Below are positions 4,038 to 34,709 of a DNA stretch of 64,000 bases, in pieces. The notes under the pieces were generated by a model. That model saw only the letters and a list, made by a program, of their open reading frames with translations, ran no database searches and was not told where the DNA came from. The stretch lies in IMG/VR virus record IMGVR_UViG_3300006923_000018, positions 12,281-76,280 of that record; one strand, given 5' to 3'. Position numbers and translations under genes: made by a program. Position 1 is the stretch's first letter; the number at the start of each line of letters is the position of its first letter. Source of the DNA: a virus.

Positions 4038-4072
4038 CCGCTATGATACTCTGAGTGCTGAAGGGGAAAGAG

Positions 4073-6478
4073 ATGGCAAAGGTCATTGGAACGGGTACTA
4101 CATTAGTACAGAAGGAAAGACCTGTAGTTGGCGGATGGCTCTCTGCGCCATCTGTTCGTAAGCGAAAGGGTTTAATTCCAACTTCTTCAATTAGCTCCAC
4201 TACCGAAGTCAGTGTGAATGAAGTTCGCCCTAGCTCTATCCTATCAAATGCAGAGCTATGGTCAGTTTATCGTCGCACCCCAGATGTGCGTGCTGCCGTT
4301 GATTCAATTGTCCGGCGGGTGGCTACATTTGATTGGACGGTAGAGCCAACCGTGGATGCAACAAGCGATTTATATCTACAGGCTCTAGATATTGCTAATC
4401 GTACAAAAAGATTCCTGTCAGCCCCAAATAAGAATGGTGAGACATGGCAGGAGTTAATGACTGCTGCCCTTACAGACTTATTAGTATTTGATGCTGGTGC
4501 TATAGAAGTTGTTTTTGATTCTAAGAAAGAGCTTAAAGAATTAGTTGCTTTACCTGGAACTACAATTCGTCCTGTACTTAACGAACATGGAAGGCTGTTG
4601 AAGTATGTTCAGGATATGGGGGACGGCGGCCTCGGGGGAGCATATCTACGTCAAACCACTAATGGCTCTCCCCCAACCTTCAAGCCTGACGAGCTTGTCA
4701 TGCTGCAAATGTTTACCAATACTCAGTCTGGTGGATACGGTAATCCATTAATCGAATCATTGGTTAATGAAGTTGTGACGTTGCTTCGTGGTTCTGAGCA
4801 CATCATGCTTGCGTATGATGCGGATGAGATTCCTCCTGGGATTTTGGTATTGGCTGGTTTGGCTGGTAATGCTGCTCGTGAGGCTCGTGCAGATCTCCAG
4901 AACATGCGAGGGCAGGACCATAAGATCCGCGTACTGACAACTCCAGATCCGGCTGGTGCTGGTGCTAAGTGGGTTGAGCTAAGGCACACTCCTAAAGATT
5001 TAGAATTCGAGAGCATTATGCAACAGATCCGCCGTACTGTATGGCGCGTGTTTGGTGTAATGCCTGTTGAGATGGGGGCCTCGGACGCCCTGCCTCGCTC
5101 CACTGCACAGATTCAGTTGGACGTGTCCACTTCTCATTTAGTTACTCCTATTCTGGAATTGCTACAAGCAAAGATCAACGCTCGAATTATCCCCTTAGTC
5201 GTTGGCGATGCAGACCTAACAAAGCTCGTCTCATTTAAGTTCGATCGAACAGCCCACCCAACAGCGGAAGATGCTCAGTATTTGTCTCAACGCTATCAGC
5301 GTTTAGTCGGAATTGGCGTAATGACACGGAACGAGGTCAGAAAAGAGATTGGTCTTCTGCCGATTCTGAATGGTGATGTTCCTACTGTAGACACGGCTCA
5401 GGGTCCGGTCCCGCTGGACATCTTGGTTAAAGAGGGTCCAGTTGGCGCATTAACCATTGAAGAGCCTTCAGTAGAAGATGAAATTACATCGAATGTTAGC
5501 CAGCAAGATATTGAGGACATTGGTGACGAGGCTCCTGGCGAAGTGGCATTGTCTAATCGATCGGAGCCATCCTATTTTGGTTATTTGCCAAGTGAATGGC
5601 AACCCGAAGGATTCTTTTCTAAGTATCGGACAATAGAACTAGAGCGCCTTGGCTTTGCAGTTGCTCAGTACGCAAAGTTTGTTCAGCCGTATTGGAGAGA
5701 GGCGCGAGACGAGCTTGTCTCTTCTTTATCTGCTAACTATAAGGATGGAAAAATCTCTGATGAGGCGGCTGCTAATCTCAGGAATGACGTAGGCAGAGCC
5801 GTCGATAAGCTAGCTACAAAGTGGGGCGTGGCGACATACCCGCTTTACCTGGAGGCAGCAAAGATCGCTCATGAATCAGCTTCCAGGTATGTAGATGGAA
5901 CGATTGAGATTGATTACGAGTTACTATCTAAGACATTTAACAATAATGCCATGTTTTACCTGACAAATGCTGAGGGGCTGTTGGGTGTAATGAAAACAAA
6001 AATGGTTATGTTTATTGATGCTTTAGTTGCTGATGGTCCTGTAATACGAACTAATCCAAAAACTCCACAGATTAGTGCTCCTAAAGACGTTGAGCCTGGG
6101 ATGTCGATAGAAGAAATGCTCGAACGCGCAATACATGCGTGGGATTCTCAGGAGAACCGAATTGAAAATTGGTCAGGAAAACTTGTTGAGCTATCAAATA
6201 TTGTAGCTGTATCCAGTTTGTCTTCTGCTGTGCCTTTTACACAAGTTGGCGGCGGCGATGAATGGTATTACGAGTGGGTTGAAGTGGGCGATAACCGCAC
6301 TTGTTCGACATGTAGATCTGAAGGCGCGATGGGATTCCGTGCTCTGAGTCAGATCAAGATTCACCCTGGTGGTGGTACTGTATGCGGCGCACGTTGTCGT
6401 TGTGTGCTTGTTTTCTGGAAAAAGAGCGAGGTAGACTCTGGAGTTGCTGAGATTCTGGGGCCTGCTGAGGATGAGTAG
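4073..6478 (+). CDS. Portal protein fused to MuF/SPP1-gp7-like head morphogenesis domain
   Basis: Portal motifs (GYGNPLIESL, VFGVMPVEMG, GVMTRNEVRKEIGLLP); C-terminal W..VGDNRTCSTC...HP....CGARCRC. Confidence 0.88.
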   Translation: MAKVIGTGTTLVQKERPVVGGWLSAPSVRKRKGLIPTSSISSTTEVSVNEVRPSSILSNAELWSVYRRTPDVRAAVDSIVRRVATFDWTVEPTVDATSDLYLQALDIANRTKRFLSAPNKNGETWQELMTAALTDLLVFDAGAIEVVFDSKKELKELVALPGTTIRPVLNEHGRLLKYVQDMGDGGLGGAYLRQTTNGSPPTFKPDELVMLQMFTNTQSGGYGNPLIESLVNEVVTLLRGSEHIMLAYDADEIPPGILVLAGLAGNAAREARADLQNMRGQDHKIRVLTTPDPAGAGAKWVELRHTPKDLEFESIMQQIRRTVWRVFGVMPVEMGASDALPRSTAQIQLDVSTSHLVTPILELLQAKINARIIPLVVGDADLTKLVSFKFDRTAHPTAEDAQYLSQRYQRLVGIGVMTRNEVRKEIGLLPILNGDVPTVDTAQGPVPLDILVKEGPVGALTIEEPSVEDEITSNVSQQDIEDIGDEAPGEVALSNRSEPSYFGYLPSEWQPEGFFSKYRTIELERLGFAVAQYAKFVQPYWREARDELVSSLSANYKDGKISDEAAANLRNDVGRAVDKLATKWGVATYPLYLEAAKIAHESASRYVDGTIEIDYELLSKTFNNNAMFYLTNAEGLLGVMKTKMVMFIDALVADGPVIRTNPKTPQISAPKDVEPGMSIEEMLERAIHAWDSQENRIENWSGKLVELSNIVAVSSLSSAVPFTQVGGGDEWYYEWVEVGDNRTCSTCRSEGAMGFRALSQIKIHPGGGTVCGARCRCVLVFWKKSEVDSGVAEILGPAEDE

Positions 6479-8563: not shown

Positions 8564-9562
8564 ATGACTATGAATCCAAACTGGATGGGCGCATCAGATC
8601 CCCGTCGCCGCGAAGCAATTGAGCGTGCATTGAACGTTACCAATGTTGGTTCTGTATTAATGCAGTCTTACATTAACCGAGTTGTTCAACAGCTTAGCGT
8701 TCGAGAATTTGGCGCATGGGCTACCCTGGACCATCGAACTGGCTCCGGCCTTGCTGCATATATTAACCAGCGCACCCCAGGTGCAGCCGGTGGCGTATGG
8801 GTGGCAGACACGGCGGCAGCTACAGCAGAACAGGGGACGTATGCTCAGGTAACATTCCCGTATAAGACTTTGCTGACGCAAGGTGCTGTTACTCGTAAGG
8901 CTCAGGCTGTTGGCGCATCTTATGGTGACTTGCTTGCAACCTCTATCGCTGGAAAGAGTGAGGACTTTGCCGCTAAGATGGAATCTTCCCTCATCAATGG
9001 TGACACTAATGCAACTCCTGCTGAGATCAATGGTCTTCTAACGCAGATCGATCAGGTAGGTGGACAGGTTATCGCCAATACCAGCGCGGCTGCTGGTGAT
9101 GATCTAACTCTTGCCCAACTTGATGCAGCTATTGACGCTGTTCGAGGCAGCGCTTCACGGTCGGACGTTGTGATTTACGGCTCATTCCTTGGAATGCGTA
9201 AACTCAATGCCGCACTTCAGGCGCAGCAGCAGTTTTCCAATATGACGGAAATTGCGGCTGGCTTCAGAGTTCGTACATACGATGGAATCCCAATGGTTAC
9301 TACCACTGGCATTAACGATGACATGGTTTGGAGCGGAACTGCTATCACGGCTACCACCGGTGCAGGTGCAGGCGTTGAGACGACTGCTCTCATTGTCGTT
9401 AATAAGCGAGACTGCTGGATTGAGGAGCTTACCCCTCTCACCGTCATGCCGCTTGCTAAGACTACGAGCCAAACAGAGTCTTTCGAAATGTTCTGGGACG
9501 GAGCGCTGGTTCTTGGTAATACTAAGGGCGCGTCAATTCTCGGTGGTCTAAGCATCGTTTAG
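8564..9562 (+). CDS. Major capsid protein (HK97 fold)
   Basis: 332 aa after protease; ESSLINGD..EINGLLTQI, YDGIPMV, PLAKT motifs; followed by a terminator. Confidence 0.85.
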   Translation: MTMNPNWMGASDPRRREAIERALNVTNVGSVLMQSYINRVVQQLSVREFGAWATLDHRTGSGLAAYINQRTPGAAGGVWVADTAAATAEQGTYAQVTFPYKTLLTQGAVTRKAQAVGASYGDLLATSIAGKSEDFAAKMESSLINGDTNATPAEINGLLTQIDQVGGQVIANTSAAAGDDLTLAQLDAAIDAVRGSASRSDVVIYGSFLGMRKLNAALQAQQQFSNMTEIAAGFRVRTYDGIPMVTTTGINDDMVWSGTAITATTGAGAGVETTALIVVNKRDCWIEELTPLTVMPLAKTTSQTESFEMFWDGALVLGNTKGASILGGLSIV

Positions 9563-12883: not shown

Positions 12884-15778
12884 ATGCTTGCTATGCGCGG
12901 CAAGATTGCGAATGATAAGAAGCATGATGCGTTAGTAGTTATCCCGACTATTGGCGTTCCCGAGCCCTTCCTTGGTTTTTATAAAAACTTTATTGATTCT
13001 CTTAGTCTTAAGGCAAAGATTGTAATTTCTATAAACCCTGTAGAGAAGTCTCATGCGGACTTGTCTATTAAGTTAATCAATTCTGTTAATCTACCTGATG
13101 GATGCTCTTTGATTATTGAGCGTGCTGACGGCCCGATAGGTTTTGGTGCGGCTATAAATGCAGGTTTGATTAGAGGAATAAAAGAGGGCGGCCTTCCCAA
13201 GTATGTCATTACGGTGAATGATGATCTAGTGCTCGCCTCTGGCTGGGACACTGGATTGATTCGCGGTCTTGAGGCAAAGTCCTTTTGCTCTCCTGTTGAG
13301 CTTCCTGATTCAGACACCCTCCTGCGTACCAAGTACGATATTTCTCATATCAATAAGATTGGTCTTGTAGGTCCAGTTACAGATTACGCTGGAGGGATGC
13401 AGCAAGTTATAAACAGGAAAGACCTGGGCTCTAAGAGTTATGCGGACTTTGCTAAGGAGTGGTCCGAGACTCCATTTAATAAAAATGTTCTGATGAGCAC
13501 TAATCTTGTAGTTGGCCTGTGTTGCGGGATGAAGCGTGCTTTTATTAAAGACATGCTTTTAGACAACGGCGAATCCTACATTGGTATTTACGATGAGGAT
13601 TCATTTCCTATCGGCGGGTACGAAGACAATGATCTTTGTGTGCGTGCTTCATTAGCTGGGTGGGGAGTTGGCCTTGCGTGGGATGTTTTTGTTGGGCACC
13701 TGGGCTCACAAACTTTGAATCGATACTTTCCAGATCATCTTCGAGGACGCAAGAATCAGTCGAATTATTACGAGAAGTGGAAAGATATAACTTACAGAAA
13801 AGCTAAAAATAAGCTTGTAAGTGTTTACCGGATAAAGATTTCAACAGTAAACGATCTAATGATGTTGAAGCAAAGCCTGTTGCGCCATTCAGAGATTGTG
13901 GACGGTCACGCGATCCTTCTCACGAATAATCCATTAGATATTATTGATGCTGCTGATTGGGCCGCTTCTGGTGCATCTCTTGATGCTAGAGATCATCAGT
14001 TGCTTCATGATTCCAGTAATAAGGGTGCCCCTGGTGTTGCCAAGGCATTCAGGTCTTGGGTTCTCGACATTACCAATCAAGATCCCGAGGTCAAAGTTGA
14101 GGTATGGCAAAAAGGGTTTAATGAGCGGGATGAGCGGAACAGAGCCATCGATATTGCAGAATCCATGAGTCCAGACTGGTGCATATCTATCGATCATGAC
14201 GAGATTCTAGAAGACCGAATTACTAGAGGACACCTTGAACGGTATATGCGTCATCCTGACCCGCTGGTCTCAACTTGGGAACTGGGATGGCTGAACCATT
14301 GGGATAGTCCACGTATGTGCCGCATAGACGGTCCCTGGGGAGACAAGGGGGAGTTCAGAGGGGGGATGCGGGGGTCTAGGCTGTGGCGCGTTCTGAACGG
14401 GCAAGAATCGCGAATTCTAAGCGGGGGTGAAGATGGTCTTCATTGTGGGAATATTCCTCCCTTCTTTCCATCATCTGTTCGCAAGTCCGGTGCGCGATTT
14501 AGGCACTTTGGATATTTGAAGGCAGAAGATCGGTTTAGAAAATATCAGTTTTATCGCAAGCTAGATCCCAATCCCTCCATTTCTGAAGTCGGCGCCCACG
14601 ATTATAGCCATCTAATTAATGAAGAAAAAATGATGATGCGTGTCTACAATCCAACAAACGGTATTGGGCTCCATATGCTAGTATATGAGAAAGAGGAGCC
14701 CACCAATATCGCGGCACTCCTCAACGAGTTGCACGGGATGATGGACCAGATTGTACTGGTGTGGACTGGAGAATGGAATGATGAGGACAAATTTTGGTCT
14801 GTTGCTGGGCTCGACGCCCCATCCATAGAGGCATGGCCCGCAACGGGACCAAGCCGGGAGTTGGCTCATTACGCGCAAGCACATAACGCTGCCATTATTC
14901 ATCATCCTCTCGAAAATAATATCGCGCAAGCACGGAATGCTGGCATCAATTACTTAAATCAATTTCATAAAAATGGACTCGGATGGGCTTTATTTCTAGA
15001 TCCCGATGAGACCTTTTTAGATATGCACGATACTGTTACAGCTATGCGCGAGATGGCCCTATCTACTGATGCGTGGGGGTGGCTCTTTAAGTATAGAAAT
15101 CTTCTACCGGGTGGCGGATCTTCATCTTCTGAAAGTGTACGCATGGTCAAGCTGGATTCAGCCAAGATTATGCAGATGAACGGAAGAGTTCATGAATCAT
15201 TTGGGCATTCAATTAAGCGTCTTCAAGATCTGGGCATTCACCCATCCTTCCAATACGCGCCGTTCTATTCAATCAATGATGGATTAAATCGGACACCAGA
15301 ACAGAACGCGGCAAAGGTAAATCTTTATCGTGGTCTACTGATTGAGGAGCTTGAAGCTAATCCGCTTCAGCCTGGTCCGTGGGTTTCACTGGGACTGCAA
15401 TACAATAATGACGGAAACCCCGAAATGGCTAAAGAGTGTTACGAGCGAGCGGTCATTTGCGCCGGGACCAGCTTTTTGCCATTTATGGAGTTGGCACTTT
15501 ATCATCTTCGTGTTGGGAAATCATTACTGAAAGAGGTAGTAACTCGCACAGTAAGTCATCACGATGCCCACAATATTGCTGTGAAGGGCATTGAGATTTT
15601 AGACAAGCTGGCCCCAGGGCAACCCTATATAGAAACTGGTGGCCCTATTGCAAAGGATGCGCTGCTTCCTGATTTTCCATTCAGTGAGTTGATCGATAAT
15701 ATCGAAGAGTCTCAAAACAACTCGATAAACGAGAGCGAATCCTTTACCATAGAGGAAGGGGCCGGGCTCCGCGTATGA
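12884..15778 (+). CDS. Multidomain glycosyltransferase: three GT-A/GT2-like domains plus TPR
   Basis: Domain 1: VVIPT, GFGAAIN, VNDD, GGYEDNDLCVRA, VFVGHLGSQT. Domain 2: NERDERN, SIDHDE, LHCGNIP, RHFGY. Domain 3: NIAQARN, FLDPDE, GRVHE, then TPR-like WVSLGLQY....EMAKECYERA. Confidence 0.88.
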   Translation: MLAMRGKIANDKKHDALVVIPTIGVPEPFLGFYKNFIDSLSLKAKIVISINPVEKSHADLSIKLINSVNLPDGCSLIIERADGPIGFGAAINAGLIRGIKEGGLPKYVITVNDDLVLASGWDTGLIRGLEAKSFCSPVELPDSDTLLRTKYDISHINKIGLVGPVTDYAGGMQQVINRKDLGSKSYADFAKEWSETPFNKNVLMSTNLVVGLCCGMKRAFIKDMLLDNGESYIGIYDEDSFPIGGYEDNDLCVRASLAGWGVGLAWDVFVGHLGSQTLNRYFPDHLRGRKNQSNYYEKWKDITYRKAKNKLVSVYRIKISTVNDLMMLKQSLLRHSEIVDGHAILLTNNPLDIIDAADWAASGASLDARDHQLLHDSSNKGAPGVAKAFRSWVLDITNQDPEVKVEVWQKGFNERDERNRAIDIAESMSPDWCISIDHDEILEDRITRGHLERYMRHPDPLVSTWELGWLNHWDSPRMCRIDGPWGDKGEFRGGMRGSRLWRVLNGQESRILSGGEDGLHCGNIPPFFPSSVRKSGARFRHFGYLKAEDRFRKYQFYRKLDPNPSISEVGAHDYSHLINEEKMMMRVYNPTNGIGLHMLVYEKEEPTNIAALLNELHGMMDQIVLVWTGEWNDEDKFWSVAGLDAPSIEAWPATGPSRELAHYAQAHNAAIIHHPLENNIAQARNAGINYLNQFHKNGLGWALFLDPDETFLDMHDTVTAMREMALSTDAWGWLFKYRNLLPGGGSSSSESVRMVKLDSAKIMQMNGRVHESFGHSIKRLQDLGIHPSFQYAPFYSINDGLNRTPEQNAAKVNLYRGLLIEELEANPLQPGPWVSLGLQYNNDGNPEMAKECYERAVICAGTSFLPFMELALYHLRVGKSLLKEVVTRTVSHHDAHNIAVKGIEILDKLAPGQPYIETGGPIAKDALLPDFPFSELIDNIEESQNNSINESESFTIEEGAGLRV

Positions 15779-17371: not shown

Positions 17372-17932
17372 ATGCCTCTTAATATACCTACTGGCACAAC
17401 AAACGACATTTCATTTGGTCCAGCGCGACTCTTCATCAAGCCCTGGGCTGCTGCGGCCATGGGAACCCCAGACACTGACGTAGGTTACATCAGTGAGGAT
17501 GGCGTTAGTGTTGAAATTACTAGCGAGATGAAAGATATTGTTCAGGGCAATCCTAAGCTTATTGAATATACTTTCAGCCAAACTCAGGGAGTTTCAGTCA
17601 CTCTAAGCTCGATTGAGTGGGATTTTAATAATCTTGTCTATGCGCTCGGCGCTGGCGTTACTGCAAACGGTGCTACACTCAAGTATTCTTTTGGTGGAGA
17701 TCCCCTTGTAAGTTCCGTAGCGCTCAACATTGAGCACCAGATGGCGGTTACTGGTAATACACTTAATCTTTATGTGTGGAAGGCCGTCAGTGAATCTGGA
17801 GTGAGCTTCCCGTTTGGCGCTGACGAGCATACATTTGAATACAAATGGAAAGCTCAGCGTGCGGACACTGATTGGGGTGGCACCGCCTTGACTTACGAAA
17901 AGCAACTGATTCAGATTTTACGATCTAGCTAA
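17372..17932 (+). CDS. Major tail tube protein
   Basis: ISFGPARLFI...DVGYISEDGVSVEI tail-tube-like motif; strong SD; precedes chaperones and tape measure. Confidence 0.8.
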   Translation: MPLNIPTGTTNDISFGPARLFIKPWAAAAMGTPDTDVGYISEDGVSVEITSEMKDIVQGNPKLIEYTFSQTQGVSVTLSSIEWDFNNLVYALGAGVTANGATLKYSFGGDPLVSSVALNIEHQMAVTGNTLNLYVWKAVSESGVSFPFGADEHTFEYKWKAQRADTDWGGTALTYEKQLIQILRSS

Positions 17933-18839: not shown

Positions 18840-21800
18840 ATGGCTAAGGCGAACTTAGGCGAGCTTTTAATTAAGATCGGCGTCGATACTAAGAAACTCG
18901 ATGCCGGTCTTACTGATGCTGGTAACAGTTTAAAAAGGTTTGGTGTAAGTTCTAGGGCTATTTCTGCTGGTGTTACCGCAGCTTTCGCGGGTATGACGCT
19001 CGCAGTGGCGGCGTTCGGGAAGGCTACTACAGAGGTTGGTGCTGGATTTGAGCAATCAATGGCAACAGTGGGTGCTGTTGCTGGTTCAACAGAGGCTCAG
19101 CTTGGCCTCATGGAGACCAGGGCTCGTGAAGTTGGTCGAAGCACTTTATTTACTGCTCGCCAGAGCGCAGATGCGATGGTTGAGTTTGCTCGCGCAGGCT
19201 TTAAGGCTGGTGAAATCATCTCGGCCACTGAGCCAGCCATTAACCTGGCTGGTGCAACTGCGGCTAATCTGACTAGTGCTGTAAAGGGAGTAGCGGCGGC
19301 GCTAAAGGTATTTCAACTCGACGCTGGTGAGGCTGCTCGTGTAGCAGATGTTTTTGCTGTAGCCACTCAGAATTCATTGTTTGATTTGCAGGGTTTAATT
19401 GATGCTATGAAGTATGGCGGTCCCGCTGCCGCTGCGTTTGGTCTAAGTATTGAGCAGGGAACTGCCTATATGATGGTCCTGCGAAACTTGGGTTTAGAGG
19501 CGAGTCAGGCTGGTGTATATCTTCGTCAGATTTTAACTAGCGCGGCCAACTTAACACCAAAGGCTGCTAAGATATTTTCTGCGGTTGGTATATCTGCTGA
19601 GGAACTTGACCCAACCATTAATCATCTTGACGATATTATTAGAAGACTTGGCGACACTACTGAGCTGAGTGGTAAAAAGATTCAATCTGCGTTTGGAACT
19701 CGTGGTGGTCCGATTGTTGCAGCCCTGGTTAAGCAATATCGTACACTTGGAGAGGAAGGGCTCCATTTCCTTAAGTTTCAAGAACAACTGGCTGAATCCG
19801 CAGGCGAAGCGGAAAAGATGTATATCCGGCAGATTGATACTGTAATTGGCCAGTTTACTATTGCGAAGTCAGCAATGGAAGACTTGTTCATTGCGATGTT
19901 CTTTGGATTTAATTTAGAGCTAAAAGATCTCGGGACTGCATTTGCGGAGCTATTTAACGCAATCCGAATTGAACTTAGTTCGAGTGGTTTCAGTGACTTC
20001 GGTGAGCCAATTAACGACTTCGCTGCCATCCTGAGAAACAACAAAGAGGGAATTGCGAAAGCATTTGTTGGCTTTGCTGAGGCCATTGCTGGTGTCGGAA
20101 ACGCCCTAAATACGCTATTGCTTGTACTCCCGCTGGTACTTTTTGTATTTAATAATTTCAAAGGACTGCTCTATGGTCTGGCTACTGGTGGTTTCGTCCT
20201 GGCTACTAGCTGGGTAGTTCAGTTCGCTGGTGGACTCGCGACAACAGGAATTGTTTACGGGCGGTTCACGGGTGCGGTCGCCTACGCAACGGTTGCTCTG
20301 GGCGAATTCACAGCAGCGCTGGCCTTGTCAACGGGCGCTGTGCTGGGGATAGCGGCTGCTATTGGGGTGGTTGTTTACGCGCTATTCCGGTGGAAAACAG
20401 CAGAAGAAGATCTCGCAGCCATTAGAAATAAGAAAAAGGCACAGAGATACGCTGAGCTTCAGCATCTTACAGATCTGAGGCAGTCTACTGATGCAATGGT
20501 CCTCTCTTTAATTGATCGTGCAGTTAAAGAGAAAACCCTCTCTGAAGAATTAAAGATTCAACTGAGACAGCTTAGCGTCTTAAATCGAAAGCAAATTGAA
20601 ACGGGATTGGCAGCAGGAACTCTGTTTGAAACTTCAGAAAATGCTGTCATGTCTTTGGCTGCTGCCTTTGAGATGCAAAAACAAGGGATGACGGGTGCTG
20701 ATCGCTATCTTCGTGATGCAGAAAAGCATCGGCGCGGGTCACTAAAAAGTGCAGCAGACCTAAAGGCTGAAAACGCGACATTAGTTCAGCAGTATGACGC
20801 CATTATCAAAAAGCATGAAGGTACAGCGCTTGCGCAAGCTGCGGTTCGTAAAGAGGCAAGCACGCTTTTTGGTGAAGAGGTAAATAGCACTGAAGATGTC
20901 ATTCGTGTATATGATAAGCGCGAAGAAAAGGTGGAGGAATTAATTGGAGGCGCCAACAGGCTCTATGAGGCGCTTAAGATGGGAAAGATAGCTCATGGGT
21001 TATCTCTTCATAGTAAATTAATCTCCAATATTACTGGAAAAACAGCAAAGCAAGCAAAGGAAGAGAAAAATCTAGCAAATGCAATACTTAAGCGACTAGA
21101 GTTTGAGCTTAAGCTGATGCGGGAGATTGAGAATCTTCGAACCAGGGGCGCAACTACTAGGAAAAACGATTTAGCGGCCAGTATAGAGGCGGCGGAAAAA
21201 CTATATGCTGCCGAAATAGCGGCTGCGCTGGAGATGGGCTTAGAAATTGCTGCCATAGAGTCAGATCTGGTAGAAACTATAAGCAATCTTAAGCTTAGAT
21301 CTCGTCTTGAAACCATTAATAAGCTGAAAGATATTGAAGAGGACGCGATTAAAAAAACGCGTTCAATGAGGGAGATGACTCAGGCTGAAGAGCTTCATTC
21401 AGAGTATCTCACGGCAGAAGCAAACTTAGATAGAATTTATCAGTTAGAAGTTGACGCTAATAATTGGAGTTGGGAACTTGCTAAGACATTTGAGGATGCA
21501 AAGCTTGCTCTTCAAAGAGAAGCAATCGCAAAAGCTGAAGAGATACGGCGTAATGACGAAAAGAAGCGTCTTGCTGATATTGAGCGAATCACTACAGAAA
21601 TAAGCACTAGAGATTTAAAAGAATCAGAGCGTTTAGCATCTGAAAAGGCTCAGATTTTATCTCAGCTTAAAAGGGACGAGGTAGGCAAGCGGGAAGTTAT
21701 AGAATCTGATTATGATTATAGAATTCGGCAGGCCCGAAAGGAGGAACGCCGAAATATAATAGAGTTTATTAATTGGAGAATAAGAAGAGGGCGGGAAGGT

Positions 21801-23369
21801 GTTAAGCGGATGCTTAATGCGGCGAAGGGCAAGGTTGCTCCTTTTATTATAGCTTTATTTGGCAGGGATAAAGAGTCTGATAAATACATGAAGCGTCAGG
21901 CTGGAAAAGCCTGGAAAGAAGCCCTAAAGCTTCAAAGGAAAATGGATCGTCAGGCAACAATAAATGAGCGCCGGAAAAGTAAGGGTAAGCCGGAAAAGGA
22001 GTTTGGACGTTTAAAAGAGTCCGCAAAAGAGGCGGCACAAGGGATTGCACAGATAATGGGTGCGACCTTGGGCGCTGTTGGCGCGGGTGCGGTGAAGGCT
22101 GTTGGGATGATGAAGTCTATAGCAGGGGCTTTTTCTTCTGTTGTAAGCAAGTTTTCTGGATTCTCATTTAGTCCAGCAGCTATGGCGCAGGAGCTTGCTG
22201 CGGCTAAGGCGGCTGCCGACGAAGAGGGTGCTGGGTTTAGCTATGCTAAAGAGGCTCGCAAGTATGTAGACGGCCTTGTTGATCAGGCAATTGGCTTTGC
22301 AGACGGTTTGGCTAAGGGTCTTGGTCCTGCACTTGAGCAGATAGCCGAACGTCTACCTGATTTATTAGATGCGATTATTGCAGCAATTCCGAAAGTGGTT
22401 CAGGCGATTGTAGATGTACTGCCTGGGCTTATTATGACCATCATTAACAAGCTTCCCGAGTTATTTTCAGCTTTGGTTAATGGATTAGTTGATGTTGCCT
22501 TAGCTCTATTTGATGCTTTACCGGAGATGTTGACGCAGTTCCTTAGTGTTGCTCTGCCTGACATGATTACAACTCTTCTAGCAGCAATTCCTAAGATCAT
22601 TGATGGATTTGTTAAGGCTCTCCCTGATATTCTTACAGCTATTATTGATTCTATTCCGATAATCATAGAAGCAATTATCATGGGTTTGCCCGATATAGTT
22701 ATTTCTATAATTAAAGCTATTCCAATCATTGTGATTGAACTTATAAAGGCAATCCCAAGGCTAATAGTTGCTATTGTTTGGGGGATACTTAAGGCATTAG
22801 GCGCGGTAGTTGGTGAGCTAGGCAAGATTATTGCAGAGGCTTTTGTTGGCGTGTTTAATTTCTTTAAGGATTGGATGGGGAGTCTCAAGGAGACGTTTAA
22901 GGGTGATCCCGAGAAAAGTAAGTCCCACAAGATTTGGACAACTATAGGAGACATTTTTACTTTAGGGGGTGTATCACGGTGGAAAAAGAATAAGGCGGAA
23001 GCATACGAGGAGCTTGGCCGAGAAATGCCCACTGGCGGGAATGCCTACTCTGGAATCAATTATGTCCCAGCGAATATGCGGGTAAATGTTCATAAGGGTG
23101 AAGCCATTATCCCTGCAAGCCGCAATGCTCAGGGGGATAAAGGGGGCATGAACCGTGCCGCGCCAGCCTCTTACGGAGGGGGTCCGGGTGGCGGCGGCAT
23201 GGGTCAGCCTATAGATATTGCAATTATGGCAGAGGGTCGTCTTCTGGACGCGGTTCAGATCACTGCTATGCGTCGTGGTCATGCCCCTGAAATCAAAAGT
23301 GAGCTACGTCGCGCATCAGGTGTGACTGTTGGATTTAATCGTGGATCTTTCGACTATTGGACTAAGTAA
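18840..23369 (+). CDS. Tape measure protein (TP901-like core)
   Basis: FEQSMATVGAVAG..ARQSADAM..ARAG core, long coiled coil, amphipathic 'I..LP.I' repeats, VHKGEAIIPA C-terminus. Confidence 0.93.
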   Translation: MAKANLGELLIKIGVDTKKLDAGLTDAGNSLKRFGVSSRAISAGVTAAFAGMTLAVAAFGKATTEVGAGFEQSMATVGAVAGSTEAQLGLMETRAREVGRSTLFTARQSADAMVEFARAGFKAGEIISATEPAINLAGATAANLTSAVKGVAAALKVFQLDAGEAARVADVFAVATQNSLFDLQGLIDAMKYGGPAAAAFGLSIEQGTAYMMVLRNLGLEASQAGVYLRQILTSAANLTPKAAKIFSAVGISAEELDPTINHLDDIIRRLGDTTELSGKKIQSAFGTRGGPIVAALVKQYRTLGEEGLHFLKFQEQLAESAGEAEKMYIRQIDTVIGQFTIAKSAMEDLFIAMFFGFNLELKDLGTAFAELFNAIRIELSSSGFSDFGEPINDFAAILRNNKEGIAKAFVGFAEAIAGVGNALNTLLLVLPLVLFVFNNFKGLLYGLATGGFVLATSWVVQFAGGLATTGIVYGRFTGAVAYATVALGEFTAALALSTGAVLGIAAAIGVVVYALFRWKTAEEDLAAIRNKKKAQRYAELQHLTDLRQSTDAMVLSLIDRAVKEKTLSEELKIQLRQLSVLNRKQIETGLAAGTLFETSENAVMSLAAAFEMQKQGMTGADRYLRDAEKHRRGSLKSAADLKAENATLVQQYDAIIKKHEGTALAQAAVRKEASTLFGEEVNSTEDVIRVYDKREEKVEELIGGANRLYEALKMGKIAHGLSLHSKLISNITGKTAKQAKEEKNLANAILKRLEFELKLMREIENLRTRGATTRKNDLAASIEAAEKLYAAEIAAALEMGLEIAAIESDLVETISNLKLRSRLETINKLKDIEEDAIKKTRSMREMTQAEELHSEYLTAEANLDRIYQLEVDANNWSWELAKTFEDAKLALQREAIAKAEEIRRNDEKKRLADIERITTEISTRDLKESERLASEKAQILSQLKRDEVGKREVIESDYDYRIRQARKEERRNIIEFINWRIRRGREGVKRMLNAAKGKVAPFIIALFGRDKESDKYMKRQAGKAWKEALKLQRKMDRQATINERRKSKGKPEKEFGRLKESAKEAAQGIAQIMGATLGAVGAGAVKAVGMMKSIAGAFSSVVSKFSGFSFSPAAMAQELAAAKAAADEEGAGFSYAKEARKYVDGLVDQAIGFADGLAKGLGPALEQIAERLPDLLDAIIAAIPKVVQAIVDVLPGLIMTIINKLPELFSALVNGLVDVALALFDALPEMLTQFLSVALPDMITTLLAAIPKIIDGFVKALPDILTAIIDSIPIIIEAIIMGLPDIVISIIKAIPIIVIELIKAIPRLIVAIVWGILKALGAVVGELGKIIAEAFVGVFNFFKDWMGSLKETFKGDPEKSKSHKIWTTIGDIFTLGGVSRWKKNKAEAYEELGREMPTGGNAYSGINYVPANMRVNVHKGEAIIPASRNAQGDKGGMNRAAPASYGGGPGGGGMGQPIDIAIMAEGRLLDAVQITAMRRGHAPEIKSELRRASGVTVGFNRGSFDYWTK

Positions 23370-26300
23370 TGGGTGGACCTAATTCCTATATCATATTTCC
23401 CGAAACAGTATTAACTGGGGAAAATAATGTTGTAAGTGTTCAACCGAACACTGATGGTGAGTACCCTGGCCAGGGTTCAGCAGATTTAAACAATACGGGA
23501 TCTCTAACAGTTGTCCAAACTGGAACTTATAAGGAAGGAGTTTCAACTTCAGCCAAAAAAACAAATTACCGAGTTTGTGATGCCGGTAGTAATTTTGCTG
23601 GTGCAACCTACGGCTGGAAGCCTTCCACGGACCTAGTTTCTCTTGGTGATGGCGCCTTTTTAGTAGATAGTACGAATGCCTTGGCTGCTGGAGATCTAAT
23701 TCTCAACAGGATTAGCATTGGAGATTCTAATAAGTTTGATATCCTAAGCGTAGATTCTAACGATCAATCAGCACTATCCAAATCTATTGCAATTAACTTA
23801 AAGAAAGACCTCCACGGCATTACTGCTACTGGCGCTACCGTCTGGGCACCGTGGGCAAATGTTGGGGCTGGCACAGTAGGGTCTGGTGATATTTTAATCA
23901 ATGATGTAGATATACGTGCTGGAAGCGACATTGTTGTAACTGCAAATGACGGGACAGGAACTTTAGAGGCTGCAATTAATGCAAAGACATGGAAAACTGG
24001 GGTGACTGGAGATCTGGCTGCTGGGACGATGAGGTTGACCAGCGGTGGTTGCAATATCAAGCTTGAGCTAAGTGATAGTGGCGCTACGATTTTAAATGGT
24101 CTTGGTGGGGCTGTTTCCCTAACTCAGTTTGGATATATTACTCTGACGCACGAAACTCATATAGAGATTCGTGGGGCCAATCCTGTCTATATAGGATCTG
24201 TATTTGCTGACGGCTATTACCAGACCCGTGAATGGTATGGCTATGATGACATGCGGTATTTTTATGCTGAGCATGGTGGAATGCTGACCAAGCCAGGATA
24301 CGGAGCATGTTCAGTCTTCTGCAAGTTAGCGATGAGGGAACTTCTATATGTTGCTGAGGCAGCGCCAGGCGAGGGCGAGACAACATCAACTCTTAGAATT
24401 TCTTATCATGATGTTCGTTCTGAGTATGATGATTGGACCAGCACAACAGTAGAGCTTGATAAGGAGTTTGCCACTGGCTTTGGAGATCATAGAGCCGCCT
24501 TGCAGGTATGCGCTATGAGGGACGGGTCTCTGAGGCTACTGACTCAGCAGAATGGCCGTGATTGGGTTTTATGGCATTCTACAGATGGTCTTGTTTGGAA
24601 TAGAATAAACGACAATATTCTGAGACGATTTACCACAGATTTAATGCAGGCTTCTCTTTGGCCCAGAATGGATGCCAGTGGTGATTTTCTTAGAATTGCC
24701 TGGATGGATTACACGTCAACCGGCACTGGAAGTCATGAAGCTCTTACCTATTATCTAAGAACCATTGTTTCGTCGGATGGCGGGGCGTCGTTTACTGAGC
24801 CTACCTTTTCACTATCTCCCTATACAATCAGCGAAGACGGTAAGGGTTCTGATTATTTCATTTGGACAATGGCTGCGCTAGGTGATGAATCTGGGACATT
24901 TTATCTACATTTTTCAACTGGAAGTCTTACACGAAATTTCTATGCTAGGCGTTTAGACGGGTGGGCCGACACGACAATTTTCTTCGCCAATGCTGCTTGG
25001 AACACTACTACGCAGGGCGCACATCTCGGCGCTGTGCGTGGGCCTGATTATTACTATGTATTCTTTCAGTTTCGTCAGCCCAGCGGAAACCCAAGCGCCG
25101 CTTGGATTGCGGAGGGGGCGAGTATGACGGTTTATGAGATAGATCCCTCTGAACCATTAAGCAGTACAAGTTGGCGCCGGTTGGGGATTAGTGGTCAATG
25201 GGATGGGACTTGTAAGTTTCAGCCAGCCCTCATCAGCTTGGTAAACTGCGGTGACTATATTTCTATGTTTGGTGCTCTAGTAGATAATGATACGGATGCT
25301 GCTACACTAGAAGCTGACAATACTTGTTATTTAAGATTTGGAAAATGGGATAAGAAACCTATCAAGGAAACTTATCCAGAGTCATTTCAGACCTCGGCCA
25401 TTGAAGACCTTGTTACCTTGACCCATCAGCCGACTCGCACACTGTATCGTTTAAGCTGGAATGCCGCATTTGGGGCACCTGCGCCTGCATCTAATGCAAG
25501 TGCTTCATCCGATACTACTTGGACCAGAGATCGTCATCAGACAACCCAAAGCTGGAATGCGTGGAGATTTAAGCTTGAAGACCAAGCGACTGTAGGCAAC
25601 TACGGCATCTATACCTTTAGCGACACTGCTAATTTGACTACTCACAATGCTCCAATATGGGGGGTTACTCCATCTATAGCTAACATAGCTGGAAGCTGTA
25701 TTGAATGTGAAATGAGAATTGAACAGATTGAGGAGGGAATACATACAACTGAGATAGTTTTCTTTGGCGTGAAATCGTTTTATGGCACAACTTCAACCTC
25801 AACAAGACAGTTAGAGATCGCACTTTACTTTCATCAAAATGGGTTTGTTGTTTGGGATAAAATTTCAGATTCGTTGGCCACAACCGGAGTGACTGGTTTA
25901 GACATGACTGAATTTCATCTATTCAGAATGGTGTTCAGGCCAAATCCAGGCACGGACAGTAGTAGATGTCAGATTTGGTATAAACAAATAGGGGATTTTG
26001 GAGAAAACGAGTGGGGACACACCCCTGTTTTTACCCCTACCCTTAATTCAGGCCCCGAATCATTTTCTCAGTCTATTCATTTTGGGCACGGCAATGTATC
26101 ATATGGTAGTACAAAACGAATATCACAATGGCGACGGATTGCGGTGCTTGATTATACCGATTGCAATCAGCTTGAAGATGATGATGTCCGATGGCCTGAT
26201 GAGATGCGAGGCCACCTTGTAACTCAGAATCCGGTTCTAATTGATAATCATGCGTCTGCTCGCTGGGGCGGCGGCGGCGGAATGGATAATGATTATTTTA

Positions 26301-27397
26301 CAGCCGAAGCTGATAGCAATTATGCAGTTTCTAATGTATTTATTGACTCTCCAAGGATAGAGTGGCGAAGCGAATCTCATGGCGTTGATGAGTTGACTGA
26401 CGGGCAAATTGTTTTAGTTGCAGATCCCAATGACGAATTCGCTCGAATTCGCTTTGAGGGAATCGCCTTCTTCAACACCAATTTTCTTAGCACGTTCATC
26501 GAATGGTCTGATGACGGAACCACATGGGCCTCGGTGGAAGATGCCATTGACACCCCTTTAATAAGTGCTACGATTTATTCTATTGGTGAAAAGTTTTTTA
26601 TTTTAGATCTTCCGTCTCAAGGCAAACCCATAATTGGGCAGATGCAGACTAATCAAAATAATACTTACTATCTGCAATTTAAGTCAACTGTAGATGAAAC
26701 GACTAAATTTTATACTGTAAAGATTAACAAGCTCGATTATATTGATGGTGACAAGTTTTCTGTATATCTGGATACGGACAAGAACCTAAAAGCATACTTC
26801 GGTGATGAGCTTGGTGCTCCAGTTACGATTCACAGTAATCAATGGGCTTACCGCGCTACTGCTTCTGGTTCGTTTCAGCCTCAAATGTACGGAGTTAGAT
26901 ACCTCCGTTTTACTACCACTGGAAGTTATCCAAGCGCTGAAGGATATTGGAAAGTTGGCCGGATTGTGCTGGGTCCAGTATTAGATTTGGGTGTTCCCTT
27001 AGAGTGGACGCTTGAGAATAATCAGCAGCCAAATGTGACAAAGTATCGAACCCGGAGCGCTATTCAGTGGGCCTTTGTGGAGGGTCCGCCACAAAGAACA
27101 ATCAAAGGTCGCATTGTTGGTGATGTGAAAGAACAAGAGCGCATGAAGCTACGTTACAGTCTTCAGAAGTATTCAGAATACGAAAAGAAGTCATGCGTTT
27201 TAGTCAAAGACAGCACCTCGTACTATGGTAGTGAATCTGACAGCAATTATACTCGTCAAAACTGCAACCCAGACAATGTAATTCTTGGCAGGATTGCTAA
27301 TGGAAGTCCACTGGATCAAATTGCCTGGTATCAGGATGTGGATGGCATCTGGAAGCAGGCGGGTGACGTTGAAATAGAGTTTACGGAGGAGGTCTGA
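23369..27397 (+). CDS. Large tail-tip protein with flagellin-like insertion and BNR/Asp-box repeats
   Basis: After tape measure; STDGLVW, SSDGGASF, SDDGTTW Asp-box-like motifs; C-terminal IEFTEEV. Confidence 0.75.
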   Translation: MGGPNSYIIFPETVLTGENNVVSVQPNTDGEYPGQGSADLNNTGSLTVVQTGTYKEGVSTSAKKTNYRVCDAGSNFAGATYGWKPSTDLVSLGDGAFLVDSTNALAAGDLILNRISIGDSNKFDILSVDSNDQSALSKSIAINLKKDLHGITATGATVWAPWANVGAGTVGSGDILINDVDIRAGSDIVVTANDGTGTLEAAINAKTWKTGVTGDLAAGTMRLTSGGCNIKLELSDSGATILNGLGGAVSLTQFGYITLTHETHIEIRGANPVYIGSVFADGYYQTREWYGYDDMRYFYAEHGGMLTKPGYGACSVFCKLAMRELLYVAEAAPGEGETTSTLRISYHDVRSEYDDWTSTTVELDKEFATGFGDHRAALQVCAMRDGSLRLLTQQNGRDWVLWHSTDGLVWNRINDNILRRFTTDLMQASLWPRMDASGDFLRIAWMDYTSTGTGSHEALTYYLRTIVSSDGGASFTEPTFSLSPYTISEDGKGSDYFIWTMAALGDESGTFYLHFSTGSLTRNFYARRLDGWADTTIFFANAAWNTTTQGAHLGAVRGPDYYYVFFQFRQPSGNPSAAWIAEGASMTVYEIDPSEPLSSTSWRRLGISGQWDGTCKFQPALISLVNCGDYISMFGALVDNDTDAATLEADNTCYLRFGKWDKKPIKETYPESFQTSAIEDLVTLTHQPTRTLYRLSWNAAFGAPAPASNASASSDTTWTRDRHQTTQSWNAWRFKLEDQATVGNYGIYTFSDTANLTTHNAPIWGVTPSIANIAGSCIECEMRIEQIEEGIHTTEIVFFGVKSFYGTTSTSTRQLEIALYFHQNGFVVWDKISDSLATTGVTGLDMTEFHLFRMVFRPNPGTDSSRCQIWYKQIGDFGENEWGHTPVFTPTLNSGPESFSQSIHFGHGNVSYGSTKRISQWRRIAVLDYTDCNQLEDDDVRWPDEMRGHLVTQNPVLIDNHASARWGGGGGMDNDYFTAEADSNYAVSNVFIDSPRIEWRSESHGVDELTDGQIVLVADPNDEFARIRFEGIAFFNTNFLSTFIEWSDDGTTWASVEDAIDTPLISATIYSIGEKFFILDLPSQGKPIIGQMQTNQNNTYYLQFKSTVDETTKFYTVKINKLDYIDGDKFSVYLDTDKNLKAYFGDELGAPVTIHSNQWAYRATASGSFQPQMYGVRYLRFTTTGSYPSAEGYWKVGRIVLGPVLDLGVPLEWTLENNQQPNVTKYRTRSAIQWAFVEGPPQRTIKGRIVGDVKEQERMKLRYSLQKYSEYEKKSCVLVKDSTSYYGSESDSNYTRQNCNPDNVILGRIANGSPLDQIAWYQDVDGIWKQAGDVEIEFTEEV

Positions 27398-30042
27398 TGC
27401 CGATTGGGGGTCCAGACTGGGATGCTCTTGCGTATCGATTTTGGGCAATTGAGGAATTCCGTGAGTTAACAAGTGGTCCGAGGGGAAAGCTTAACGAGCA
27501 TTGGACTGATCAGATTCGCAAAGATCCACTTCTCTTGGGAATGCACATGTGTATCGACATGGTTTTCGGTGGTGGTCAACGATTACGTGTATCGACAGAT
27601 CCCATCACCGCCTATCGCCGTACTCCAGCTTCTGGTCCTGTCACTGAAATAGTGTACGAGCCCATTTTAATGCAACAGCCAAGAGTCAATCAGCAGTATT
27701 CCCTTGGTACTGGATCTTCTTCTGCTCGTAGTTTCGCAATCTCTTTTGCTGAGAATAATATGAATCCCTATTCAATTATTTCTGAAGGGAGATTCATTGC
27801 AGGGTGGGCTGAGGTTTCATTACTCATAGGCAATCAAGATTGGGAACTTAGATATGTTTTGATGCTTGGAGACATGAGCGGTGGCGTCACATTTGGTGCC
27901 GTAGATGAGATCATAGAAACAGAAATTGTAGATCCCCTAGAGACTAGCGACTTATTAATTACTCCTTATACAGTTCAGGCTAATACAGCATTATCAGCTA
28001 CTTGGTCTGCCCTGTCTACTGTAATGGCGGGCACTGTCATAGCAGATGACATCAAAATTAACGGGACTGATATTCATACAGGTTCAAATATAGTTGTAAC
28101 TGCTGGTGACGGTACTGGAACATTGGCTGTGGCTATCAATGCCCTTTCTTCTACTACTTCTGTTACCAGCGTTGCTACAAATGGACTCATGACGCTCACG
28201 GCTAGAGGTGGTGGGGAAATAGATCCCCAAGTCAAACTTGAGTTTACCTCTAATGGAGGACTCATCTTAAATGGCGTGCCTGGGGCTGGCTCCATCACTC
28301 AGGCTGGCTCCACTACAGTTCCAGAGAGTTACGTTGGTTATCGTTATCCTCTTGTTTTCAACAGCCCAGTTAATGTTCCAGCTATTCGTCTATCTGCTGC
28401 AACTCCCCCTTATTTTCTATGCTGGTTCGCCTCTGATGTTACGCCTTCTACCGTAAATGTTGATGGAGTAGATTATGGCTCAGCCAATCGTTATTATCCA
28501 TATACCTTTTCTAAGGTGAATGACGGAACTGGCGCTAACTATTGGAAAGTAGAATTTTCAACTGGTGATGCGGTTTGGGAGGCTGAGGCGCCTGTAAATG
28601 GAGGAATGACGATTTTCCCAGGAGATATTGTAATAGAGGGGGTTGACATTATGTCGGCTAATCCGAACTTTATTCTTCAGGCTAATGCAAATGGAACAAA
28701 CATTCTAAATGGGACTTCTGACCCAATTCTTGTAAATTCCACCTCATCAGGATGGGTTGCTGCTGATAATGTAAATGCAGGAGTATTAAATCCTGGTGAT
28801 ATTACTGTTCGTGGAGTAGATCTCGTAGACAGCGGCTCGGTCAGTGTTCAAGTTGATGATAACTCATCAACTCTTATTGCTGAATTTGCTGAGAGGTATA
28901 CGGAAACCGGAGTTATAGCGTTTCATGTGGCACACGGAAGCGGTTACAGAATTCGCCTTCAGTTTGAAGGGGAAGAGGAAAGTGGAATTCAAGATGATGA
29001 CATAGGGGGACTTCTCCGTTCACTCATCAATAATGTGTATAACAAAACTGGAGTTATGGCCACCATAACTGGGGGTAAAATCAGTCTTACCAAAACCAAC
29101 AATACTGATATTGATTTAGTTACGACTGCGAGGGGCGGCTATATATTAAATGGCGTATGGGGAGAGGTTAAGGCAACAACTCTTGGCGGATGGTCAGACA
29201 ACACCAGTGTTTTTGTAAGTGGTTCTCGGGACGGTGGTGCTCCTGATGAGAATATCATTAAAGTTATTAAGCGTTTATGTACCAACTGGAGCACATTGGG
29301 CCATCATGGGATTAGCGATAATCTCTTTGCTATTGCTGAGTCCAAAATACCTAACATCGCCAAACCAGCAGTCATTGTAAATGGCTCAGGGGGCGCCGAT
29401 TCCGCCTCTGCGATAGAGTATATTGAATCTACGTTATGCGCCAGTTTCCCTATGGTATCAATGGCATGGGGAAACGGTGGCTATGGTCCTGTAGTTACAG
29501 ATCGAACACGAGGAGGAATTCGTATGCGATTGGTAGCGGGTCAGGCTCCGTTATTAGATAGATCTACAGCCATTAAGGAAACAGCAAAATCGTCATTAAG
29601 TAATCAATTTACGCTTCGCTATAATTTTGATCCCGTAACAAATACGCATAATAGTTATGCGTCTAGGGACAGGAACAACAGCACCCTGTGCAGGATTAGC
29701 CAGGAGCAGGCAGGATTACGAGAGCGTGCGGTTATTGATTCTCCTCTTATTTATAGTTCGATTGTGGCTGATTATGTTTTAGACTGGCTTGTAGATCATT
29801 TTGCTCTTCCCTCATACTATGTTGAGTACGATTGTTTCCAGCCTTTATTTATTACTTTAAACCTTGGTGATAACATCACAATAACTGATTCAGATATTTC
29901 TGATTCAGAGATCACAGCTACAGTTGAAAAATTAGAGCTAGAGGGTGGCCGGTGTCGAATTGGTGTCCGGTTATGGCTCCTCTACGATAAGCTGGGCGGC
30001 GCCGCCGCAGGGATGGCTGGTTCTCAGTCTGGGAGCATTTAA
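27397..30042 (+). CDS. Tail-tip/baseplate hub protein with flagellin-like insertions
   Basis: C-terminal hub-like LNLGDNITITDS; internal repeats shared with upstream gene. Confidence 0.72.
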   Translation: MPIGGPDWDALAYRFWAIEEFRELTSGPRGKLNEHWTDQIRKDPLLLGMHMCIDMVFGGGQRLRVSTDPITAYRRTPASGPVTEIVYEPILMQQPRVNQQYSLGTGSSSARSFAISFAENNMNPYSIISEGRFIAGWAEVSLLIGNQDWELRYVLMLGDMSGGVTFGAVDEIIETEIVDPLETSDLLITPYTVQANTALSATWSALSTVMAGTVIADDIKINGTDIHTGSNIVVTAGDGTGTLAVAINALSSTTSVTSVATNGLMTLTARGGGEIDPQVKLEFTSNGGLILNGVPGAGSITQAGSTTVPESYVGYRYPLVFNSPVNVPAIRLSAATPPYFLCWFASDVTPSTVNVDGVDYGSANRYYPYTFSKVNDGTGANYWKVEFSTGDAVWEAEAPVNGGMTIFPGDIVIEGVDIMSANPNFILQANANGTNILNGTSDPILVNSTSSGWVAADNVNAGVLNPGDITVRGVDLVDSGSVSVQVDDNSSTLIAEFAERYTETGVIAFHVAHGSGYRIRLQFEGEEESGIQDDDIGGLLRSLINNVYNKTGVMATITGGKISLTKTNNTDIDLVTTARGGYILNGVWGEVKATTLGGWSDNTSVFVSGSRDGGAPDENIIKVIKRLCTNWSTLGHHGISDNLFAIAESKIPNIAKPAVIVNGSGGADSASAIEYIESTLCASFPMVSMAWGNGGYGPVVTDRTRGGIRMRLVAGQAPLLDRSTAIKETAKSSLSNQFTLRYNFDPVTNTHNSYASRDRNNSTLCRISQEQAGLRERAVIDSPLIYSSIVADYVLDWLVDHFALPSYYVEYDCFQPLFITLNLGDNITITDSDISDSEITATVEKLELEGGRCRIGVRLWLLYDKLGGAAAGMAGSQSGSI

Positions 30043-34636: not shown

Positions 34637-34709
34637 TGGAGTGTAGCACAACTGGCAGTGCATCCGACTGTTAATCGGAAGGTTGCAGGTTCGAGTCCTG
34701 CCGCTCCAG
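34637..34709 (+). tRNA. tRNA-Asn (GTT), no encoded CCA
   Basis: Acceptor TGGAGTG/CGCTCCA, D stem GCAC/GTGC, anticodon arm TCCGA-CTGTTAA-TCGGA, T arm GCAGG-TTCGAGT-CCTGC, discriminator G. Confidence 0.95.

Follow-up and report, generated by a model that had tools for sequence, protein, structure and literature searches.

The outer domains of the flagellins of Helicobacter pylori (FlaB and FlaA, PDB 9yh1 and 9ygu) and Campylobacter jejuni (FlaA, 6x80) form a nested two-domain beta cassette of the Flagellin_IN family, and the beta-domain of p5 from Sphingomonas sp. A1 (PDB 2zbi, 3k8v, and 3k8w) was the first Flagellin_IN domain to be solved. The siphophage proteins known as "evolved" distal-tail and tail-tip proteins carry inserted carbohydrate-binding modules, and tail proteins of phages are known to exchange decoration domains. 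The general fold of the flagellin domains also occurs as an exposed add-on in phages, namely, in the finger of T4 gp11, in the insertion domains of the sheaths of Mu, A-1(L), PhiTE, XM1, Milano, and 7-7-1, and in the T7-type nozzle; the likeness between p5 and the gp11 finger domain has been published (PMC9751261). Here we describe a flagellin-type module in the tail genes of an uncultured long-tailed phage, taken from a stretch of 64,000 nucleotides (the window) of the IMG/VR record IMGVR_UViG_3300006923_000018, which has 76,280 bases and is complete according to CheckV. The module lies in P0001, a protein of 1342 amino acids (aa) encoded just past the tape measure gene, and further units of the same family are found in hub2, the product of the following gene. 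We regard it as almost certain that aa ~95–285 of P0001 are homologous to the flagellin outer-domain cassette.

A first-pass annotation of the window, made from the sequence alone, had placed a flagellin outer-domain-like module in the first tail-tip protein at 23630–24200. The peptide that it quoted corresponds to aa 88–277 of P0001, in the +1 frame of the open reading frame (ORF) 23369–27397, and its extent is near the boundaries that we set, aa ~95–285 or window 23651–24223. The carrier and the parts of the module are as follows.

23369 to 27397, + strand: ORF of P0001, 1342 aa, the first tail protein past the tape measure and the carrier of the module.
23651 to 23830, + strand: first half of the outer flagellin-type domain with the degenerate IN motif 1, aa ~95–154; it aligns to aa 390–446 of the flagellin P0004.
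23831 to 24136, + strand: inner flagellin-type domain with the canonical IN motif 2, aa 155–256, nested in the outer one; Pfam Flagellin_IN matches at aa 177–226.
24137 to 24223, + strand: closing strands of the outer domain, aa 257–285 (strands 256–261, 264–268, and 282–285, with high model confidence).

A phmmer search with aa 85–285 of P0001 against 1.84 billion representative proteins gave 46 matches at E ≤ 1e-3, P0001 itself among them. Flagellin_IN was present in 41 of the other 45, Flagellin_N in 30, and Flagellin_C in 28. The verified flagellins P0008–P0012 were matched with E values from 5.7e-14 to 2.1e-08, and the match covers nearly everything that lies between the N- and C-terminal helices of verified ~475-aa flagellins, as can be seen in P0008 (Flagellin_N 5–141, match 172–358, Flagellin_C 387–472). 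The identity of the module to genuine flagellins was 37–42%, with 37% over 174 aa to P0004. Pfam Flagellin_IN (PF07196) matched aa 177–226 with 15.4 bits in the whole protein, 17.3 bits in the segment alone, and 19.2 bits in a six-frame search, under the curated cut-off of 22.7 bits; the orthologue P0002 (68% identity) exceeded this cut-off at the homologous position with 25.2 bits. The same family gave 16–22 bits in hub2 and 32.7 bits in P0006, the hub2 orthologue. The Ile-Asn centre is kept in both IN motifs of the segment (..SIAINL.. and ..AAINAK.., with A-I-N at aa ~141–143 and 202–204), N143 and N204 are invariant or nearly so in an alignment of 43 sequences, and the two motifs align mutually in register (z 3.3 against shuffles). 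A sequence search of the PDB with the module gave no match.

The structure of aa 1–312 was modelled with AlphaFold2 from the 43-sequence alignment. The predicted local distance difference test (pLDDT) score was 94–98 over a block of aa ~100–280, with aa 1–87 and 289–312 disordered. In a Foldseek comparison with the PDB the ten best chains were all flagellins, with E values of 3e-8 for H. pylori FlaB, 7e-8 for H. pylori FlaA, and 2.5e-6 for C. jejuni FlaA; FliC of Pseudomonas aeruginosa and Sphingomonas p5 were also found. By VIA-align, residues 87–286 of the model were superimposed on 171–380 of H. pylori FlaB with Z 13.6 over 182 aa and a root-mean-square deviation (rmsd) of 3.9, a range that takes in the closing strands of the outer domain. 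H. pylori FlaA (Z 13.5) and C. jejuni FlaA (Z 11.5) followed, and over the three flagellins 182–195 residues were aligned at 20–24% identity. It was also possible to see how the matches are divided along the segment. The inner residues 155–256 alone resemble single-domain proteins (p5 with Z 9.6, FliD with Z 6–8, and FlgE with Z ~6), residues 87–286 resemble the two-domain outer region of the H. pylori and C. jejuni flagellins, and in the first half of the outer domain, where pLDDT is above 94, the structural matches came solely from two-domain flagellins. These aligned ranges point to a cassette of two domains, the second placed inside a loop of the first. Such nesting is thus supported in the model, as read from aligned ranges and not from contacts, and together with the mutual alignment of the IN motifs it bears out the nested two-copy architecture that the first-pass annotation had claimed. 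The inner unit (155–256) was compared with p5 175–276, giving Z 9.5–9.6 and rmsd 2.7 over 95 aa at 24% identity, with the Ile-Asn centre kept; unlike the phage module, whose two domains are nested, p5 has a single domain and is a flagellin with helical arms.

The likeness to flagellins could be due to chance, or to some generic beta domain that every homologue has, and the sub-threshold Pfam score of P0001 may be quoted for this reading. In a scan of 48,161 representative chains independent of Foldseek, twelve flagellar proteins ranked first and were followed by the insertion domains of phage sheaths and by T7-type nozzles, with Z ~5, and by T4 gp11 with Z 2.7. The phage insertion and decoration domains reach Z 4–5 and show structural likeness only, whereas the module is related to flagellins in sequence as well, with significant E values, and reaches Z 13.6. 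With verified flagellins matched to E 5.7e-14, the next nonflagellar fold at Z ~5, and two homologues that lack the module (P0003 and the hub of locus L009, described below), the chance or generic reading was refuted and its probability is negligible. The sequence search and the predicted structure both confirm the annotated flagellin module on the tail-tip protein.

Neither Flagellin_N (PF00669) nor Flagellin_C (PF00700) matched P0001 or hub2 at E ≤ 1, and at E ≤ 0.1 the whole genome of 76 kb gave no match to Flagellin_N, so it encodes no filament-forming flagellin. In contrast to the H. pylori and C. jejuni flagellins, the phage cassette has no D0/D1 helices and lies in a tail protein of 1342 aa; for these reasons P0001 cannot polymerise as a filament. 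Judged by its sequence, P0001 is not a flagellin, and the part that it has in common with flagellins is the outer cassette only.

Considering that the annotation had described the module as inserted, we looked at the relatives of the two carriers. The genes of the tape measure protein, P0001, and hub2 are co-oriented and their stop and start codons overlap. A metagenome scan for relatives gave one locus only, L009, which is syntenic with the window (P0007, a hub, proteins of 140 aa and 263 aa, and then, farther on, a helicase and a PD-(D/E)XK nuclease). Its hub of 580 aa aligns to hub2 with 36–46% identity in the parts that flank two gaps, hub2 aa ~189–305 and ~396–598, with clean junctions at 188/~306 and 395/599. 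In the L009 hub phmmer found no flagellin-type unit. Since this hub is without units and the flanks are collinear, the hub2 units are real insertions, as given in the following lines.

27397 to 30042, + strand: ORF of hub2, 881 aa, the second tail-tip protein, with 61% identity to P0006.
27961 to 28311, + strand: hub2 insertion 1, aa ~189–305, one flagellin-type unit, 50–53% identical to the inner domain of P0001.
28582 to 29190, + strand: hub2 insertion 2, aa ~396–598, two units, one of them nested (phmmer domains 388–437, 450–508, and 534–597; matches from its own genome).

For P0001 the same conclusion is reached only in part. Its homologues in the searched collections are three, P0002 with 68% identity, P0007 with 30%, and P0003 with 24%. 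P0002 and P0007 keep the module; P0003 is without it, but aligns from aa 313 of P0001 onward only, and its own N-terminal 930 aa are unrelated to those of P0001. The segments on both sides of the module are these.

23369 to 23650, + strand: N-terminal ~94 aa of P0001, conserved in P0002 and P0007 and not in P0003 (local alignments; pLDDT 37–48).
24305 to 27394, + strand: conserved core of P0001, aa 313–1342, common to all homologues including P0003 (BLASTP of 313–1340 against P0003 932–1896, E 2e-56).

Because the module sits between the conserved ~90-aa N-terminus and the core, and because the N-terminus of P0003 is different, it is better described in P0001 as an exchangeable N-proximal cassette than as a clean insertion. 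What was said of insertion therefore stands for hub2, by comparison with the 580-aa hub, and partly for P0001, where P0003 offers another N-terminus and not a clean deletion. An N-terminus common to P0001 and P0003 was suggested by MAFFT and discarded, as the shuffle test did not support it (40 versus 31.7 ± 6). The N-terminal ~90 aa of P0001, P0002, and P0007 begin with GGPNSY..FP.

The number of units varies among these few relatives from 0 to 3 per protein. P0007 has an extra unit past the first cassette, and in P0006 one member of the nested pair of hub2 is missing.

Window phage: 2 units in the first protein and 3 in the hub.
P0002 and P0006 (not established as belonging to one phage): 2 units in the first protein and 2 in the hub.
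L009: 3 units in the first protein and 0 in the hub.
P0003: 0 units in the first protein; hub not seen.

A separate carrier that is not a flagellin is P0005 (973 aa, on an ENA contig of 140,840 bases), which is made up nearly throughout of Flagellin_IN units, five to eight in number, and has no flagellin N- or C-terminal helices.

Copy number goes from 0 to 3 per protein among relatives with otherwise conserved cores, from which the units would be dispensable plug-in decorations and would not belong to the core on which tail assembly depends. In this respect the carriers are similar to the decorated tail-tip proteins of siphophages, which are likewise large proteins encoded after the tape measure with plug-in domains that vary in number between related phages; in hub2 the insertion is seen against a shorter homologue. 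The difference is that the inserted family here is Flagellin_IN and not a known carbohydrate-binding module. In our interpretation, aa ~95–285 of P0001 are a complete flagellin outer-domain cassette with two Flagellin_IN-type beta domains, of which the second lies in a loop of the first. The cassette is the homologue of the entire hypervariable region of ~475-aa flagellins and is without the helices that build the filament, and the same domain family has been inserted three more times in loops of hub2. The units may stand out from the tail tip and serve in adhesion as accessory domains of low affinity, which would hold the virion on a polymer of the host surface, either a glycan or the flagellar filament, ahead of the committed receptor step. 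The data show the homology, the fold, the nesting, the insertion, and the variation in copy number; surface display and adhesion are what we infer here, from the turnover in copy number, from the exposed additions of this fold that the tails of other phages carry, and from general knowledge of decorated tail tips. As a whole, a flagellin cassette used as a plug-in adhesion or decoration module of the tail tip is the explanation that we favour, with moderate confidence; the accessory adhesion role taken separately is more tentative and its chance is somewhat below even.

Several points weigh against this proposal. The Flagellin_IN score of P0001 itself stays under the curated cut-off; the AlphaFold2 model of the remainder of the protein, aa 286–1342 (from 4 sequences), was unusable, with a mean pLDDT of 41.9; the outward display is assumed by analogy with the insertion domains of other tail proteins; and there is no one conserved ligand that flagellin outer domains have in common.

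The same data on copy number could be explained if the units were inert spacers, stable beta domains without a ligand whose only effect is to make the tail tip bulkier or more rigid. Copy number drifts in no evident order, the units show no recognisable binding-site motif, and sheaths use this fold for insertion domains that are structural. On the other hand, the module has been kept across homologues that are 30% identical in the core and reaches up to five units in one phage, which suggests selection, and tail-tip insertion domains of other phages often bind carbohydrate. We consider the spacer rather unlikely, although it is the alternative to which we give most weight.

A more specific role would be flagellotropic docking, with the units binding the host filament through the same outer-domain contacts that flagellin subunits make mutually. 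The module corresponds to the full outer cassette of real flagellins, its nearest structures are filament outer domains, and in Campylobacter and Pseudomonas filaments the outer domains touch one another. In addition, positions 203–309 of the hub-family profile A8 gave a weak match (E 0.07) to the outer domain of the sheath of 7-7-1 and Milano, which are flagellotropic phages of Agrobacterium. This last match is not significant, the same fold occurs in the sheaths of phages that are not flagellotropic, and among the 1.84 billion representative proteins the nearest flagellins stop at ~42% identity, a distant match for a homotypic interface. Docking of this type is therefore an unlikely function, and slightly more doubtful is its strict form, in which the flagellin units would slot into the outer-domain lattice of the host filament as a "like-binds-like" flagellotropic adsorption that works by mimicry of the filament surface and not by fibres that wrap around it. 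The sheath chains of 7-7-1 and Milano also gave structural matches of low Z to the module.

Another possibility arises from a gene located between the neck and tail genes, at 12884 to 15778, which encodes a protein of 964 aa with several GT2 (glycosyltransferase family 2) matches, all sub-threshold, and a tetratricopeptide repeat (TPR) region. In Campylobacter and Helicobacter, flagellins carry abundant O-linked glycans on their outer domains, and the flagellin-type units could be the substrate of this triple GT2 and TPR protein, in a copy of flagellin O-glycosylation. The gene belongs to the virion module, and P0055, a homologue with 60% identity, shares a contig of 18,050 bases with P0002. 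Against such a glycan scaffold, full-length homologues of the GT2/TPR protein number more than 110 (33–85% identity), many of them on contigs of 70–100 kb, while the exhaustive search gave only three carriers of the module that are not flagellins. The enzyme is consequently not coupled to the module and marks instead a large group of phages in which the flagellin-type module is rare. Moreover, the glycosyltransferase matches in Pfam were all below their cut-offs, and no enrichment of Ser and Thr was found in the P0001 module, 17.3% as compared with 17.2% in the core. We regard the scaffold as very unlikely.

The module appears to be rare among phages. Neither P0001 nor the module had a match by tblastn in 50,697 GenBank phage records, a megablast search with 12 kb gave none, and pattern scans of IMG/VR for the module found none; BFVD returned only weak matches to uncharacterised phage proteins. 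In the literature searched on Flagellin_IN or flagellin-like domains of phages there was nothing relevant beyond the p5/gp11 likeness. Since no counterpart was seen in those phage records or in that literature, the use of the flagellin family as a decoration domain on a phage may not have been reported before, as far as we found. The lineage is very sparsely sampled.

The first-pass annotation had also suggested that the phage captured the domain from its host and that the top flagellin matches would indicate the host. It is plausible that a transfer from bacterium to phage took place at some time, as the domain family is overwhelmingly flagellar and rare on phages. A recent capture from the present host, for mimicry or as a host marker, agrees poorly with the data. 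Flagellins match it at 37–42% identity at best. A homologue whose core is only 30% identical also carries the module, which thus predates the split of these homologues. A maximum-likelihood tree of 52 units was poorly resolved; in it the units of P0001, P0002, and P0007 form their own cluster, with a Shimodaira-Hasegawa-like approximate likelihood ratio (SH-aLRT) of 91, hub2-A clusters with P0006-A (97), and every tail unit belongs to a single set of weak support (80) that includes a few flagellins. For these 52 units the tree names neither a donor nor a direction; it is compatible with a single origin but does not establish one. The two paralogous units of the window are identical at about 55–60% of DNA positions, by our own count of the alignment, and show no long repeat, from which it follows that the duplication is old. 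As for the host, the closest flagellin, P0008, had relatives of only 26–34% identity in 185,579 species genomes, apart from one stretch of 79 aa with 47%; they come from Aquabacterium, Desulfocapsa, Bacillota, and Hydrogenedentota, scattered phyla that give no host signal. Capture from the host was not upheld, and a recent event is highly improbable.

The tail tip of the window phage thus bears up to five units, two and three in adjacent genes, of a family that otherwise marks flagellins, hook proteins, and cap proteins. The link from flagellin to phage is now at the level of sequence, beyond the distant structural likeness already published, and makes a testable case of domain traffic between the surface of the flagellum and the virion. 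It also gives a way into the question of what flagellin outer domains bind and provides a candidate adsorption determinant for an unstudied group of phages.

The remaining parts of the carriers are less well defined. No Pfam, PHROG, NCBIfam, or PDB profile matched the cores of P0001 and hub2, with the PDB profile searches giving noise, and the C-terminal 343 aa of P0001 had no short homologues in the search made for them. The N-terminal segment of P0001 may fold only within the assembled tail. The gene of the tape measure protein directly upstream indicates the tail-tip position of the P0001 and hub2 genes, and this position after the tape measure argues for Dit-like and Tal-like roles of the carriers. 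As leads only, Atlas connected hub2 to viral clusters with Phage-tail_3 (score 0.98) and the C-terminus of P0001 to small viral proteins, some of them with F5_F8_type_C domains. A canonical Asp-box (S-x-D-x-G-x-x-F/W) is located at aa 468–475 of P0001 (window 24770–24793), with a counterpart in all four homologues and a chance expectation of 0.09 per shuffled protein; two shorter variants occur near aa 404 and 1047, and P0002 gave a weak match to BNR_2 (E 0.024). On these motifs, the core of P0001 may contain a sialidase-like propeller.

The gene order of the window is siphovirus-like, and nearly all genes are on the + strand. Besides the GT2/TPR gene and the two tail-tip genes, the virion genes are the following.

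1729 to 3378: large terminase.
4055 to 6478: portal.
8564 to 9562: major head protein.
After the major head protein and ahead of the GT2/TPR gene: head-tail adaptor.
17372 to 17932: major-tail-like protein.
18840 to 23369, + strand: tape measure protein, 1509 aa (Pfam PhageMin_Tail, E 4.6e-34; PHROG tape measure families to 1.8e-58).

Outside this region, a single tRNA-Asn (GTT) is found at 34637–34709, with the helicase gene on one side and the PD-(D/E)XK nuclease gene on the other. Distant from the tail operon, at 42871–46622, there is a separate cassette of three genes, whose products are a protein of 950 aa that has no family match, one of 176 aa with weak matches to scaffold or structural proteins, and one of 115 aa that is similar to phrog_1084, an L-shaped tail fibre assembly family.

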